Below, piece by piece: positions 9,001 through 60,170 of a stretch of 64,000 bases of DNA. The notes under the pieces are model-generated. The model saw only the letters and a program-made list of their open reading frames with translations, was not told where the DNA came from and made no database searches. Both the position numbers and the translations under genes were made by a program. Source of the stretch: Haliotis cracherodii (Eukaryota). Position 1 is the stretch's first letter. Every line of letters starts with the position of its first letter. The stretch spans positions 3,038,001-3,102,000 of the forward strand of contig NW_027266297.1 in NCBI RefSeq assembly GCF_022045235.1, given 5' to 3'.

Positions 9001-12000
9001 TCAATCGAGACGACATTGTGGACGTCATCCAGAAGGCCAAGGGTTCGTGTCGCTTTGCATGATTCAGTCATTACTCTCACATCCACTGCTTACCTAGAAA
9101 TTCAATAACCACAAACCAGATTCATGTGGAAGTGCACCATTAGGCTTGACAACTTGGTATGCAACGATGCCAATGTACTGTCACTGCAGCGCATATGTGA
9201 AACATGCCTTTGATATTGTCCCCAATCCCATGTCGGCAGCCTCAAGCAGCGCCAGATTTGTTCACACTTCACATTTTCAGACTACCAGTCTATCGGGTTA
9301 ATACGTAGTGGAGGATGCAGTATATATACTACTCAAAAGAAGAACTTTAAGGATCACCCAGTTCTTTCATATTGGTAATGTTAATCTGTCATGGCATGAG
9401 AGATTAACTATTGTAATATGAAAGAATCCAGGTGATCCTTAACTTCTTTTGAGTAGTATATACTGACGGAAATAAATAAGGGAACACTTAGTTACAGACA
9501 CTGTAAAATGACATGCTGTCATGTGTTCCCAAATACATGTTGGAAACATTGCACACATACACATCTCACCATTTGATTCTGATGTGTTGAATTTGTATGC
9601 ATGCTATTTCAAAAGTACTGACAGTAAAGTTTATTCCCCTGTATTTTTTCAATGGTCCCTTAATGGTTTCCATCAGTATGAGTGGCACATTTAGATTTTT
9701 TTATCCTGCTCTGGTTGTTACATACTCTTTTTAGTCTTACTTCATTTTTGAAACCTCTCGTGAAACCATTTGTCTTTTGAAGCTGAGCATGCAAGTTAAA
9801 TATCTTAAATGGTTGCTAAGACACCTATATACTCACCAGCAAAAGAAACACAAATACCATAAATGTTAGCTCATATATGAAGAATTGCTCTTATTCAACA
9901 GATATTAGTTTGGTTTGATGCACAAATAAACCTACTGGTATGTTGTGTGAAGTGAATGTATGCATAACTTATGACGTCATAGATCCATGACTTGAGATGC
10001 ACTATTTGTCTCATACAGGATTAGCATGTAAAGTTTAGAAAACCTTTTTGCAGAATATAATAAGAGTAAAGACATTCTATGGTAACACTTGACTGATTGT
10101 TTTGTCATTAAGTGGTACACATTGGAAACATCTCTTCTTATACTTACTTCTCTCTATGTTTCTATGGTTGCATTTCTGTTGGCGGTGAGTATGTATAGTA
10201 TATATTGAAATAAATAGTATTGAACATTGAAGGCAAGCTACAGTGCCTCTTGTCTGTATGTTTGTAACAGAGTTACAAAGGCAAGCTACAGTGCCTCTTG
10301 TCTGTATGTTTGTAACAGAGAGTTACAAAGGCAAGCTTCAGTGCCTCTTGTCTGTATGTTTGTAACAGAGAGTGAGTCAGACCTGCCGCAGATCTTCCTG
10401 AGCTACCAGTGGGACTCCCAGGATGACGTCCAGAGTCTCCGGGCACGCCTGGAGAGGGCGGGTTTCACCTGCTGGATGGACATTGGTCAGATGGGTGGCG
10501 GGGATCAGCTCAACCTCAAGATCGATGAGGGCATTCGGAACTGTGTGGTGAGTTGGTAAAGATGATGTCAGAGAAGATAGAATGTGAGCTGGGCTTACAC
10601 AACAGTGAGACAACACAAGGGTGCTGTAAGCGTGTATATTTGTTGTTGTTAAAGCCACACTCAGCAATATTCCAGCTATATGACGGCAGTCTGGACCAGA
10701 CAATCTGACAGATTAATATCATGAGCATCGATCCACGCAACTGGGATACAATGACATGCATCAACCAAGTCAGCAAGCCTGACCACCCGATCCCGTTAGT
10801 CGCCTTTACGGCAAGAATGGGTTGCTGAAGACCTATTCTAACCCGGATCTTCACGGGTAGTGCTGTAAGCAGTATTTAAGTTACATTACTGCATGTGAGT
10901 TTGATGCGGGAGGAAACCCCCAAGTGATGCAGGTACTTCACCCCAAATGTCATCATTTTTTATGAATGATTACAACACTGAGCCATAATTATGGTAATAC
11001 TTACGAATCTTCTACCTCTAAAACATCATTGACAAATTCCTGTAATTTGCCTGCAATCTCACTAAACTAAACAATTCTTATGAAATCTCTACCTCTATCT
11101 ATCTCTGCTATAAATCTTGTATTTTGGCTTCAATCACACTAACTAAAACTTTCAGATTTTCTGCACAAGTCCTCTTCAATGTCAACTATACAACATCAGT
11201 TGTCCGGCAATAGCACTCAATTACCCCAAGGTATTCTAGTGTGTGAAGGCGACAGAAACCTCACTTCTTCCCTGTGTATGTACTGCTCCTCCAGCAGTCA
11301 CACTATTCTTGTCCATTTCAGTAAAGAGGCTTATTACTCTAAAGTAGTAGTCTTATTGGCTGCTTATAGTACATGAGTATTAAGTAAGTAATAATGGAAG
11401 ATATACTCCCACTACCTCCTCGTCGAGATCTTCTACATCAACCTAGGTCAGACATCTTCTACGAAAATCTTTCCAGCCCAAATCTCACTGCCTGGAAGTT
11501 TTCTCGCAAAAGATGCAAGCCTCCTGATTCTCTGATTCTGCCTCAGAAACTGTGGCTAAATCATGGAGGAGAGCTATCTCCATCTCCCCATCTCCCTCTA
11601 CCTCCCCCCCCCCTCTATCAGCAATGAAATGGGAGTTCTAAAGAAGGTATCACACATTGACATTTTATTCCACTGCATGATTTCAAATAATTCAATGAAT
11701 GTAAACTCTTTGGGATTTGAAGCTGATTTATAATGAGGGAATCACAGGAAGGTAATTGCTGTCAACTATACAGGGAGTGTTCTAGAGGCAGAACCCACCT
11801 TTCCCTCCGGTATATTCTGGCAATAATGTAATAGAGGTAGAGGATTTGTAAGAATTATCAAACAATAGTTGTTATTGTTAATGATTCTAAGAATACTACC
11901 TCTATTACATCAGAAGTACTCCCTCCCACCTCCAAGATCATCTGTCTCCAGTTGATTGATGAGTGGAAAGATGTGAGGTTTCTCCTGCCTTCATATACGA

Positions 12001-28452: not shown

Positions 28453-37957
<9,505 letters not shown>

Positions 37958-40277
37958 CTGAAATATGAATTGATCATTAAACTCTCGGAACCAAAAAATC
38001 ATAATTCTTCCTGGTAAAATTAGTCAACAAAACTTCACAAGGTAATATGAAAACAACATCCGCAACATTCTCTGGAAATGAAATCCTGTTCCCCATAATT
38101 TCATATTCCCTTCTAGCTTCATGCTTACATTGTTATGAAAACATGTGACTCACGTAATTTCCTGAGAATCTCAAACAAAAAATAACTGTTTAGCAAGAAA
38201 ATGAATAAATCTCAAAATAGCCAGTCTAAAAAATATTGTATTCCCAGACAACTGCAGATATGACCCAAATCCCAAATCTCACCTCCAATCACAATAAACC
38301 ACTTGTCCAACATGATGATTCTATTCACCAGAGCAATTCACACCTGACCACTGATAGTAAAAATGTGCCGGACACTAAGCAGGTATAATAATCCCTCACG
38401 TTATCTATGACAGAATTCAGTGATGAAAACCTCCAGGGATCTGCTCATTCAGGTCAAAAAGCTTTAGGTGCCAATATCCTCCATGGCCCATGTTGTCCCA
38501 TCTCAACATGAGGCGCCTGTGTACGCTGTTTCCCTCCATGTGGCCTTTCTGTTTATACTGGCACAGCAGGAGCTCCTAATGGTCTCATTCTGCCTCCTCA
38601 GGTGCTCCTGCAGGACCTGGACTGAAGCAGCAGGTGCCCTTGCTATGTACACAGTCTCAGTAGGTGCCCTGTTGGATTCCTGAACTGAGCGTAATGCAGG
38701 TAGCCAATCAGTGCCCACAGTGAGCAGGTCCCGTGGAGGTCCTGAGGAGGTCTTGGGCAGATGATCCTGGGACACTCACTGGACAAGCCTCCTGCTGTGC
38801 TGTGTCCACCCTAAGCTTGATATTAATAGCAACCTCAGGACAATTTTGACAGATCTTCAACACAGCAGGTAGCTCAGCTTGTGGGATGCTCAACTGAGAA
38901 GCAGCAATCATCCCCAAGGTGTCCAGTTCACGCGTCACCCACACCAAATCCTCTCAACTATTTGGTGAACAAGTTCCAACTGAGAACCAATTCATGGCTC
39001 CTTCGTCTTTGACCAGGCATTAACTAACGGAATCATTAGATAAACACCACTTAGCAATAAAGGAACTTTTCCCCTTCAATTTACCTTCATGATAGAACAA
39101 TTTCAGGTCCTCATGAACTTGAAAAAGGAGTCCAACACAAGTCTAGAATGATTTGGCAAGTCTAGATTACCTCAGCTCTGAAATTAAGGATTTTCCTGGG
39201 CTCCAGTTGGATTTTATTATTTTTATTTTGTAGATATATTAAAAATATATATTTTAAATAAGATAACTTTATTTCTGGGACTAAATATCAGTCAAGGTAT
39301 ACATAATAGTTACACAGACAAACTTCTCCCAATCCCTTATTCTCAAATCAATTCATACAGAAAACAAGATCAGTCATTTATATCGCTGAAGGTTCATTAG
39401 CGACTCTGTGCGGAGGTATGATATTATCAGTTAATCCCTGAAAAGCTCTACTGGGCACCGTTTAGCCGCATGTTTATACGTTTAGCACCATGTTTATACG
39501 TTTAGCCCCATGTTTACATGATCAAACCAAAACAGAAACACATAATAGGCGACACTAGGTGGTTAACACTACCAACTATGATCACAAGTTGCTGCACAAC
39601 AAATCATGACCATTAAGCTTGTTTACAATGCCTAATGCCAAATTACAATACCATGAATGGCTGGTGATCTATGCCCACATAACAAGTGTTAATATCATTT
39701 GATGAATGAAAGCCGATGAGTATCAAATCACTTGTTTACACAACTGTCATTGATAGCTACGACAGATAAATGTTGCTGTCAATGGTCGGTGATCTATAGC
39801 AGATAACACAACTATCACAGGCGTGGAGACCCGGGAAGTCACTCAATATGCTACTCACGTTTGACCACAAGTATTATAGAGGGCCGGGCGAGTGGGACGA
39901 CCCTGTATTACAGTAGTAAATATCTCTCTGTGATGTGGTCTATCTTAGACCCCCTTGTCCCTACACTCGATGGGATTCAACGACTGGAGTGTCATTGGGT
40001 TCACATGCATCAAGGCAGGAAATGGTAGAAGTATTAAATATTATACCCAATGTAACAGATTTATACCAAACAAATATCCTACTAGAATATATTCTGACAT
40101 TTTCCACGTTGGTATTATCCAAAGCATATTGTCACTTAAGAATAAAAGTTTGTTATTACCCAAACCATTTTTTTACATAAGAATCCTAAACGTTGTGTTC
40201 CTCATAATATAGAAGTTGACATACATAAATTCTCTTCCTTATGTGTATCACTTCTAAATGCTTTTCAAAGACTTGAC

Positions 40278-40527
40278 AAGAATCTTGTTACCTACATTCA
40301 TAGCACTTTCTCCATGACAGTGTGAGAAAAATTTCATCACTGTGAGAAGTTTTTAACCAAAATAATTTTTAGACATAAGAATCTTGTTACCTACATTCAT
40401 AGCACTTTCTCGATGACACTGTGAGAAAAAATTCATCACTGTGAGAAGTTTTTAACCAAAATAATTTTTAGACATAAGAATCTTGTTACTTACATTCATA
40501 GCACTTTCTCGATGACACTGTGAGAAG
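40278..40527. repeat. 99-bp tandem repeat, about 2.5 copies, containing a - strand splice donor
   Basis: aatcttgttac(c/t)tacattcatagcactttctc at 40281, 40380 and 40479. Confidence 0.9.
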
Positions 40528-40653
40528 AATTGTGTCGGAGTGAGGCGTCGTGATCATGTTTATGTTACTGCCGTTGCAGGGAACGCGACACGGTGAGTCC
40601 ACAACCGAGAGAGAACACAACACAGGCATATCGCAACTACAAAAACTCAGCAT
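40494..40653 (-). CDS. PDE4: Candidate alternative first coding exon of PDE4 (MLSFCSCDMPVLC...SRKCYE)
   Basis: In-frame ATGs at 40653 and 40629, perfect donor GAAT|GTAAGT, phase 1 matching the 37957 acceptor, promoter motifs just upstream. Confidence 0.55.
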
Positions 40654-40869
40654 CAAATTATTCCAAGAATATTGTTCCAGTGCAGGACCAGCTTTCACAA
40701 CCTCAAATCTTCCTTCAGGCAGTAACCCTTCGTCAAGATATCCAGAAATCCAACACACATTGGTCTTAGAGGATGAACCTCTGTGTCACACACAAGCTCA
40801 AAGTAAACTGAATCATTTACACATACCACGCTAACCATATCTCCCGTATTTCCCTACTACGAGAGCTGC

Positions 40870-41000
40870 CTTCTGATTGGCCGACATCCGCATACTGGCT
40901 GCCATTCATTGGCTGAAGCAACCCTGGGCCTGTGTTAGTTTCTTGGCTTGAGTGACCAACTAATGAGTTCCTCCTGTGAGTTTTCCTTTGACGTCACCAA
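40870..41000 (-). promoter_or_regulatory. Candidate internal PDE4 promoter: full CRE plus paired CCAAT boxes
   Basis: TGACGTCA at 40989-40996; CCAAT on - strand at 40876-40880 and 40908-40912, 32 bp apart; locally GC/CpG-richer. Confidence 0.55.
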
Positions 41001-41917
41001 GCTCTTGTACTGTCTCGTTAGTTCACAGCCCTGGCTGGGCTCGGCTGGCTTGCTGTAGGTGCCTCAACTCTCCTGCACCTGCTACAGCTCATATTGCCCG
41101 GTATATCAGTATATCAGTATATCAATACCACTAGGCCAGTGTATGCATGAATGCATATCCTTTATAATTAATTATCTGGTTATGTTGTTATTATTTAATA
41201 CCTCAAGCTATTGAGAAACGTGTTAAATATCTAAGAACTATAATCATGAATTTGAAAATCAAAATTTTAAGTATTTCCATCCTGGTAATGCAATACTATA
41301 TCCATCAATAATACACATCTCTAACAGTTGCATTATTTTGCAGCAGTTTTGATGCTATGAGCAGTAATTTGCTTCGTCTCTGATTTATAGCGAAATCGAG
41401 CCAGTATTTAGCAGTGACAACAGCCCTTACAGTGTAGGCGGCATCTCGGGACTGGGTCAACTGATTGACTAGGTGGTGACACGCAAGCTATTCCTTACTC
41501 TGCACATACTGCAGCTGAATTACTAGCTGTGTGCCATGGTTATACAGAAGTGTAGTTCTACCGTGACAAATATTGATTTATCGGACATACACACTCAGGT
41601 TTAGACTAACATTTAGTCCCAGATATATAGTTATCTTATTTAAAACTATATATGTACATAATAAAAAGTAAAATCCAAATGGAGCCCAGAACATTTTTAA
41701 TTTAGAGCTGATGCAATCTAGACTTGAGTTGGAATCAATTTTGAGTTCATTCTCTAGTGTCTGGGAGACAGACCAGCTCTAGCAAACACCTGGTACAAAT
41801 ATCAATACACCAGTAACCCTAGTCTACTTATCAACTCTAAATGACACAATGCGTCACATTGCACACTTTTATTGCCCTTCAGGCTGAATAATTATACCTT
41901 GATCAAAAAAGTAAAAC

Positions 41918-57786: not shown

Positions 57787-60170
57787 AACCATGGAACAAA
57801 TACATACAATATATTTGTTCCAGTCGGTAAAAAAAATGTCATTTTATGTTAAGTCTTCAGGATACTCCATAACGACAGCTGGAGTATCCACAGGCGACTG
57901 CTTTTTTGTTTACTTTACTTCACATAAACAGTCATTTCATGGAATTCTTGTGCAGCAGTACTGACAATTTCAGGTGTGTTTTGGGCTTTGCATTCTATCT
58001 ATTTTTTCATAATTACATGTGTTCACAGTTGCCTTTATCATTTACTAAACTATCATGATTATTTTCATGCTTTCTTTTTTCATCATATTCTTTTGTTTTA
58101 CATTTAGATTTTCATTTTCACTGCAATTTTATGCATTTAATCCTGATATTATTTTCCGGGTTAGAACTGAATTTGGTCAGAACAAAAACATGCTTACACC
58201 CATACATTACTATCTTCCCATTTCTTGGCATTTCAACCACATTTCTTTTATGAAAATTGTTTGTTTGAGTGACAGGTGCTACCAGTAGGGCGGGACATGT
58301 TTGGCCATTTTACCCTGAATGGAATCAGTCTCTGTGGTTGTTCTCTGGCGTTGAAGTTTTACATCTTCATAGGATATCAGTTTGTTGATGGAAGGTTAAG
58401 CCTGTGTTATAGTGAACGGCCTCAGAATGATTAAGACTCAAAACAACTGACAATGAAACATGAAGTAATCAAGAAATCTGCATGCACATGTGCATGAATG
58501 AATGCATGCATGCAGCACACAGTCACATGCTGTTTTGTGTTAACAATGCTGAACTTGATGACTTGTACCATCATTGTCTCACAGCGCCCATAATGAATTA
58601 GCCCAACTCAGCATCTGCACACCAGCGCACCACTATACCAAATATACAACAGAAACATTTAAAGCTTTGATTCAAATTTTCAGGCTTTTGCACCTGAAGA
58701 GTTTGCCACCAACGAGGTTGGGAACAGGTGGAGCCACCTTGATATTTCCTCCAACATCACAATAACAGATCCTCCTCCCAGTAGGGGGGAGACATCGGTA
58801 CCAACCATTCCTGTTCTGGCATGGCGCCACCCTCCCACAGCTCCTTTCACCGTCAAGGAGTCATTGGATACCTAAGAATGCAACACTGTCGCAAGTTACA
58901 GTCAAACTTCATTCTAAGGATTGCTCTTTTAAAACAAATCTGTATCTGCCACAAAAAAAGTAACTTAGATCGTGTTGCGTAGTCTTTTTTCCCTCTCCGT
59001 ACCATTATCTTCCCTAACTTCTCCCATCCCGAGAGCGTTGCATTGTGGGAGGACCTGAATGAACTTGACAAGCCTCAGTGGCTCACGCATTTTAGACTGA
59101 GGCCATATACCCATTCATTAATGGACGGCTTATCAGCAGGAGTCAGCAAGTTTGTATAATGATGTGGGCTAATCAGGCAGGATGGCATCCTGCACCACTG
59201 CCTGGTTGGATGCCAGGAATGGGTGGCGCCAACCACAAATGACCACCCTGATTATTCCAAGAAACCATTAAATGTCTGGGTTAGAAACATGATGATATCC
59301 ATTCCACCTGTTTGGGAATAACGTGACAGTTGACAAACATTATTTACAAAACTGAGCAGGATCAGTAATGAAATTTCTCCACATTCTAAAACCAAAATTG
59401 TTGAAACAAACCGTTGAAAAACATTGATATTCATTCCACCTGTTTGAAGTGAGTGAATATGGTTTTACGCCGCTTTATGCAATATTCCTGCAATATCACC
59501 AGAAATTAGCTTCACACCAACTGTTTGGAAAATACTTGATAATTTAATGCAATCATTTAGAAAAAGAATAATTGATAATGAAGTCAACATTCTCGACATT
59601 TTCTTAAAAACAAAATTGTTGCAGACAACAAGGTGGAGCCTCATTATTCAGATTTGACAAAGTGCTTCAGACAAACATGTTCCGAAAGTAACCTTCACTG
59701 GGGTGCACAACACGCTCCAGACAGAGTACAGAAATAGACTCAGGAATTACCAAGTTACACATAACTTTTTCGAAAGCAGCATCCCAATAAATTCATGATG
59801 ATGATGATAATAATTACTGCTGACTAATGACTTCCGGCCATCTCTGACGTCAACATAACGTAGGATAGCCAAGACGCTGCGTGGTGCCTGGATGCCAAAC
59901 CCTCAATGAATTAAGCAGAAGGATCACGACTGTACTGACTGCCTTCTCCCTACCCTACCTCACACGCACACACTCGTGAGCAGCCCCCGTACTCCTTATG
60001 CATCCTTATGAAAAACATTCAAGCGATTAATAATTCATGTAAGCAAACATCAGAAGATGTGATCCGAGGTAAATTTCAAGGGGGTATTGGAAAATGGTTT
60101 CACACCTATTCTCTTCATCGACCTTGAAAAGTGAAGTACCCGGGATATGAAACACCCATGTTCCACTTAC

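Follow-up and report, generated by a model that had tools for sequence, protein, structure and literature searches.

Can a PDE4 gene make, from a promoter within one of its own introns, an enzyme that carries neither UCR1 nor UCR2, the two regions by which PDE4 is defined? The question is raised by a stretch of 64,000 nucleotides from the abalone Haliotis cracherodii (assembly GCF_022045235.1, contig NW_027266297.1, positions 3,038,001 to 3,102,000; hereafter the window, to which our coordinates refer), where a preliminary description made from the sequence had placed a cAMP-responsive internal promoter and an in-frame first exon on the minus strand. A natural and conserved form without UCR1 and UCR2, and with its catalytic exons intact, would lie outside the standard PDE4 classes.

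The host gene is the abalone (Haliotis) PDE4. The acceptor exon of the proposed junction is 98% identical to Haliotis PDE4, and tblastn places eight exons of the window at residues 276-716 of the Haliotis PDE4 protein P0001. The catalytic domain (PDEase_I, Pfam PF00233) was matched on four window exons, and an ERK-type PISP site and an FQF motif are both encoded by the last exon. The exons downstream of the junction are:

28456..35978, minus strand: seven catalytic and C-terminal exons after the acceptor exon (tblastn, residues 339-716 of P0001)
37767..37957, minus strand: acceptor exon KQQEVDIP... (end of UCR2/linker 2), common to UCR-containing isoforms (junction contigs, protein comparison)

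The UCR domain (Pfam PF18100) was matched at three places on the same strand, all upstream of the window, and the candidate exon therefore sits in the intron past the last UCR2 exon; that is, inside an intron of ~29 kb lying 3' of that exon, 26 kb of which falls within the window. The nearest UCR exon (G000:C34:3105271-3105366) reads FKRML...YL, has a phase-1 donor at its end and corresponds to the human UCR2 segment still carried by 507-aa PDE4D chains (residues 6-36). We take this segment to hold the gating helix, which is consistent with passages of PMC6135860. Two stretches without stops, 81 and 90 aa long, are present in the same intron (38953-38500, minus strand), possibly a decayed mobile element; a Pfam search of one of the two gave no convincing match. 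Elsewhere in the window, a TIR_2 domain exon (10224-10556, plus strand; E 1.6e-10) belongs to a separate plus-strand gene at ~8.8-13.3 kb.

The candidate exon and its surroundings consist of the following elements:

40494..40924, minus strand: transcribed exon, probably an alternative first exon, 5' end variable (contig ends 40796, 40845, 40924)
40494..40629, minus strand: predicted coding part of this exon, a 45-aa N-terminus starting MPVLC (ORF and gastropod homologues)
40695..40760, minus strand: upstream ORF of 21 aa in another frame, closed ahead of the main ATG (ATG 40760, stop ends at 40695)
40488..40493, minus strand: phase-1 splice donor GTAAGT, used (sequence and junction contigs)
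40278..40531, no strand assigned: tandem repeat with a 99-bp unit (2.6 copies) that duplicates the end of the exon and adds donors reading GTAGGT (sequence)
40184..40276, no strand assigned: high-copy dispersed repeat adjoining the tandem array (40 scored among 1050 candidates)

Positions 40540-41200 are single-copy in the genome, and a Pfam search of the new exon matched no family. The short upstream ORF and the GTAAGT donor are as originally described: joining donor 40493 to acceptor 37957 keeps the frame open in phase 1 into KQQEVDIP, with Tyr as the junction codon. In-frame ATGs stand at 40653, 40629 and 40557 (minus strand), and further upstream ATGs at 40838, 40824 and 40816 matter if transcription begins higher up; two to nine ATGs precede 40629 depending on the start site. 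From 40629 the predicted isoform is 486 aa long and all catalytic exons are present. An ORF with a donor says little by itself, because ATG-started phase-1 ORFs of at least 20 aa precede 4 distinct donors in the 26 kb of intron within the window; transcripts and homologues have to decide.

A triplicated donor had also been proposed. The repeat array exists, with 2.6 copies, but donor copies 2 and 3 (40394, 40295) have the sequence GTAGGT with in-frame stops ahead of them, and the joints listed in the four runs examined include none that uses them; we have set aside the idea that the triplication is functional. Dispersed repeats at 40184-40276, ~39120-39260 and ~41600-41780 are abundant in the run contigs. 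Because the second and third of these are joined on opposite strands, they look like inverted copies of a single element on either side of the exon.

Transcripts were sought in 20 runs that contain the exon region, 14 of them guessed to be RNA (8 studies, 6 organism labels), none being on record as RNA. Four of the 20 (X1, X4, X7 and X9) were examined in detail as assembled contigs, their RNA type again a guess. The junction 40494->37957, on whose presence the preliminary description had staked its proposal, is found in three of these four (X1, X4 and X9; three studies, three organism labels, RNA guessed). It skips 2536 letters and ends CT..AC on the plus strand, a canonical GT-AG pair exactly at the predicted sites, and in the same three runs two dispersed repeats are the only covered parts of the intron. 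It also bypasses all three UCR matches, including the FKRML...YL exon, so that UCR1 and every UCR2 exon found by Pfam are skipped, as had been claimed, and what is left of UCR2 is a few residues encoded where the acceptor exon begins.

The exon contigs begin at 40924 (X1), 40796 (X4) and 40845 (X9), with no unaligned 5' tail. Such free and differing ends fit a first exon with thinning coverage, in contigs that cannot fix start, strand or level. Run X7, ~2% diverged, has no 40494->37957 joint listed; its contig spans 41163-40481 with 17 letters left over, giving a 30-letter tail past 40494 that equals the overlap length in X1, X4 and X9. The aligner probably ran on into the intron here, because the first 13 letters of intron and exon differ at only 5 places. 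The X7 end at 41163 says little owing to low intronic cover in that run. Since the contigs of X1 and X7 reach above the CCAAT boxes described below, and that of X7 above the CRE too, one sharp start is disfavoured. Contig depths for this exon and the shared exon (11.6/36.5, 86.8/216.5, 45.8/427.1 and 10.7/32.6) are no measure of expression. From these transcripts and the homologues described below, we judge it highly probable that this is a spliced internal exon of abalone PDE4 that makes a UCR-less isoform, and it is likely a first exon.

What drives this exon is a separate matter. The candidate promoter contains:

40989..40996, minus strand: complete, palindromic CRE (TGACGTCA) as a possible CREB/ATF site, 65-190 bp upstream of three of the contig 5' ends (sequence)
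40908..40914, minus strand: distal CCAAT box (RRCCAAT, NF-Y-like; CCAAT at 40912)
40876..40882, minus strand: proximal CCAAT box (CCAAT at 40880), with a spacing of 32 bp to the distal box
40806..40811, minus strand: initiator-like TCAGTT, candidate start at ~40809, ~70 nt below the proximal CCAAT (X4 contig end 40796)

The CRE (40996-40989) and the two CCAAT boxes 32 bp apart are thus where the preliminary description had put them; a third CCAAT, at 40763 (minus strand), had been left out of it. No TATA box match was found in the candidate promoter. The NF-Y boxes (RRCCAAT) and the initiator were judged by their usual consensus and spacing, and TCAGTT is a frequent motif, with 108 copies in the window where 95 are expected. 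The ends of X4 and X9 fit a start at ~40809-40845, and X1 reaches just above the CCAAT boxes. Full CREs number 82,607 in the genome, or one per 14.3 kb, which gives a ~2% chance of one in any given 300 bp; finding one near the candidate transcription start suggested by the contig ends, as expected of a cAMP-inducible intronic PDE4 promoter, has the same ~2% probability by chance. The genome contains 4 instances of the exact layout of a CRE with two RRCCAAT boxes and 1 of the reversed control, counted with a pattern that was fitted to the site afterwards; the three other sites are L009, L011 and L012. Among the differences listed for X7 none falls within the CRE or the CCAAT boxes, which is uninformative at ~2% divergence.

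Seven more full CREs lie in PDE4 introns (window 45675, 59845 and 62583; L013:1314; L014:2000, 4376 and 5899), making 8 in the ~46 kb seen against ~3 expected at the genome rate; a CCAAT-type box lies ~60 bp from each of the two at 59845 and 62583. Enrichment of CREs within the window was considered and dropped: five are present, which only 1 of 100 shuffles matched, yet this equals the genome background.

Two readings of the promoter have to be weighed. The putative CRE may make the isoform a cAMP-induced, delayed negative-feedback brake, and hence a candidate for CREB-driven feedback on cAMP; resting as it does on one motif, this is a tentative reading that we put a little below an even chance. 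Equally, the isoform may be real and its promoter constitutive or tissue-specific (NF-Y driven), with the CRE incidental or basal only. The genome-wide CRE background, the missing TATA box and the presence of the exon in 14 RNA-guessed runs from 8 studies, which is unlike a rare induced transcript, all point this way, and it too falls just short of being evenly probable. TATA-less CRE promoters are often poor responders to cAMP.

Whether the exon encodes something that evolution has kept can be asked across molluscs. From 293 proteins fetched, 257 were full-length with a recognisable junction, and 36 (fragments or no junction match) were set aside; the intron position in other species was deduced from the junction residue. 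UCR2 is present in 228 of the 257, all with Asp at the junction, whereas 23 have no UCR2 and carry Tyr there, as predicted for the window isoform. The remaining 6, without UCR2 and with Asp or Asn at the junction, look like truncated models. A gastropod-type N-terminus, a grouping by a motif that was defined after seeing the sequences, is found in 11 of the 23 (Patella, Nucella, Aplysia californica, Elysia, Plakobranchus, Candidula x2, Bradybaena x2 and two further contigs); a number of the gastropod entries are gene models labelled 'hypothetical', in some cases on short scaffolds. The window isoform shares the traits of this group: a place in the same intron, a phase-1 donor, the junction Tyr, an MPxxC start and a downstream hydrophobic motif.

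The likeness extends to the peptide. Patella X2 begins MPVLC, exactly as does the window ORF from 40629, and its score against the window peptide was reached by 0 of 2000 shuffles, compared with 2/2000 for Candidula and 8/2000 for Nucella (with a slice that ran 8 residues beyond the junction). Pairwise scores for Elysia (156/2000) and Plakobranchus (423/2000) were not significant, and likewise those for bivalves. A profile of the 11 gastropod N-termini, with the window left out, put the window ORF in first place among 2071 ORFs (E 0.0069, against 1.2 for the runner-up); with an earlier profile that lacked Patella it came 5th of 1593 (E 5.4). By these alignments we regard the homology to gastropod UCR-less N-termini as modest and leaning on the limpet, but real, and the conservation in other gastropods that had been foreseen is borne out.

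These homologues also speak to the start codon. Met-Pro opens 8 of the 11 gastropod-type entries and, in 7 of those 8, Cys stands at position 5, as in the window; a Met-Pro start is found in only 6 of 225 UCR2-bearing proteins. Because the homologues begin at the Met-Pro of 40629 and such a start is rare in UCR2-bearing proteins, translation likely begins at 40629 and not at 40653, which would add 8 unconserved residues. An ORF of 45-53 aa had been described: both ATGs are indeed in frame, but it is the 45-aa version with which the homologues agree. Similarly, of the Cys-rich N-terminus then proposed, Cys5 is conserved and the other cysteines are not.

Beyond gastropods, the combination of no UCR2 and a junction Tyr is seen in bivalve-type entries (six), a Sepia cluster (four) and Mytilus (two). 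Bivalves have a conserved UCR-less first exon of their own (P0187, P0019, P0062, P0287, P0015 and P0039), often with a Met-Pro start, and four of the six end in an ILAPIYFNFT-like sequence. Comparison of the bivalve and cephalopod first exons with the gastropod exon revealed no detectable peptide similarity (best E 0.17; hhalign 0.3%), and a resemblance to the super-short peptide of the vertebrate protein P0145 was rejected (window rank 22 of 178). In land snails both PDE4 paralogues retain the UCR-less first exon (P0003, P0072, P0061 and P0293). Both UCR-bearing and UCR-less proteins are listed for Patella vulgata, Ruditapes, Sinanodonta and Bradybaena. The window isoform is absent among the 15 members listed of a 28-member Haliotis cluster, and no UCR-less form with a Tyr junction occurs among the members listed for Lineus (15/15), Tubulanus (14/14), Lingula (15/16), Liolophura (7/7) and an Octopus cluster (15/27), which is no proof of absence. 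The UCR-less isoform is already present, unnoticed, in the automatic annotation of several molluscs, including the limpet RefSeq.

The presence of a UCR-less form in Aplysia californica (P0058) invites the reading that the window isoform is the already cloned Aplysia 'supershort' apPDE4, with novelty limited to abalone. We think this unlikely: the supershort form is said to keep UCR2, as its name implies in mammals, even though P0058 is in NCBI with the same N-terminus type. Passages of PMC4580752 describe long, short and supershort forms of apPDE4, which is what makes the identity conceivable. It is less likely still that the transcript is spliced in abalone and yields little or no protein, either by the uORF and upstream ATGs diverting ribosomes or by decay of the exon. 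The two to nine ATGs above 40629 would favour this, as would the abalone peptide being the most diverged in the MKTEALIL-like motif and 2 of 3 listed ORF variants altering the residue (too few to judge by), but gastropod lineages have preserved the frame, the phase, the junction Tyr and the MPxxC start. Lastly, run types that are only guessed to be RNA and contigs that cannot show a start leave a very slim chance that a retrocopy or deletion in DNA gave rise to the joined contigs, or that the exon is an internal cassette, against which stand the canonical GT-AG at predicted sites in three studies, the uncovered intron, the free 5' ends and the single-copy exon.

Returning to a UCR-less isoform with its own first exon, the following mechanism can be proposed. 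A TATA-less promoter (two NF-Y boxes and the initiator-like site at ~40809) would start the transcript, onto whose first exon all downstream exons would presumably be spliced in one molecule, and translation would begin at ATG 40629 behind the uORF. The product would be a 486-aa cAMP phosphodiesterase, catalytically intact by its exon content, likely monomeric, and without UCR1 or the UCR2 gating helix. With UCR1 absent there should be no PKA switch and no UCR dimer, and with the UCR2 helix absent no capping of the active site. Its activity would then be set by amount and location (transcription, uORF and turnover), likely under transcriptional rather than PKA control. The Met-Pro-x-x-Cys N-terminus could serve as a targeting or turnover signal. 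Speculatively, Pro2 might act as a Pro/N-degron of the kind treated in passages of PMC9180843, and a GID4-family gene is present in the abalone genome; it is likewise speculation, built on one conserved Cys, that Cys5 might be acylated to form a palmitoylated anchor. Since the effects of ERK on PDE4 depend on UCRs in mammals (passages of PMC5526615), the ERK response of a UCR-less isoform may differ. By analogy, the isoform probably works much like a super-short monomer made from an intronic promoter (as in passages of PMC1892053).

The broadest interpretation is that molluscs have an ancient fifth PDE4 class: active, UCR-free, driven by a CREB-dependent intronic promoter, beyond the reach of PKA activation and UCR2 capping, and bearing MPxxC as a membrane anchor or a rapid-turnover mark (Pro/N-degron-like). 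We consider this doubtful as a whole. If true, it would amount to a transcriptional off-switch for cAMP that has not been separated from the known isoforms in the Aplysia and Lymnaea memory models. According to passages of PMC4580752, Aplysia PDE4 controls serotonin-induced facilitation, and catalytic-domain probes cannot distinguish isoforms. The passages of the literature available show an active UCR-less PDE4 only as an engineered construct, and we found no paper on such a natural enzyme, on the UCR-less models or on this exon in a search whose coverage left out most subscription papers. The interest is bounded by what short forms already offer, being monomeric and mostly released from autoinhibition, and by the listing of the isoform in databases for several molluscs.

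How does the isoform compare with known PDE4 classes? In passages of PMC6613170 and PMC6135860, UCR1 holds the PKA site, UCR1 and UCR2 together make the dimer, and the UCR2 helix gates the active site; the former (2019) states that UCR2 is present in all long and short isoforms. By its predicted exon content, the abalone isoform cannot be placed in any vertebrate class, whether long, short, super-short or dead-short. Long forms have both UCR1 and UCR2 and short forms a complete UCR2, whereas the abalone isoform has neither region. Super-short forms are closer, with no UCR1, an intact catalytic domain and their own intronic first exon, and PDE4D2 is a monomer (passages of PMC2929239 and PMC6135860). 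They retain part of UCR2 (UCR2b), having either a first exon placed between UCR2a and UCR2b or a start at a Met within UCR2. The abalone exon is situated an intron further downstream, and the FKRML...YL exon is skipped as well; the preliminary description had suggested a form shorter than the super-short ones. Known active vertebrate forms keep the regulatory module in part, and this isoform would drop the whole of it. The enzymatic difference may be small, because autoinhibition by UCR2 is said to be specific to long forms (passages of PMC6613170). Dead-short PDE4 is also without UCR1 and UCR2 (PMC6613170), but its catalytic unit is truncated and inactive, while the abalone gene has all catalytic exons. 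The model for the abalone CRE is provided by PDE4B2 and PDE4D1/D2, whose intronic promoters are induced by cAMP as delayed feedback (passages of PMC1892053). These forms, however, keep UCR2 whole or in part, use a promoter in a different intron and have demonstrated induction, in contrast to a CRE motif alone in abalone. The isoform classes of Drosophila dunce were compared from a summary, and a UCR-less fly form is possible. In Aplysia, the N-termini of long and short apPDE4 set membrane targeting (passages of PMC4580752 and PMC6567041), and these forms oligomerise through UCR1-UCR2 (PMC4580752), regions that the abalone isoform does not have. Its nearest counterparts are UCR-less models known from databases only, Patella vulgata X2 (XP_050403957.1), Ruditapes X3 (XP_060565335.1) and Aplysia californica P0058: all three share its junction and Tyr, and those of Patella and Aplysia share its MPxxC N-terminus as well.
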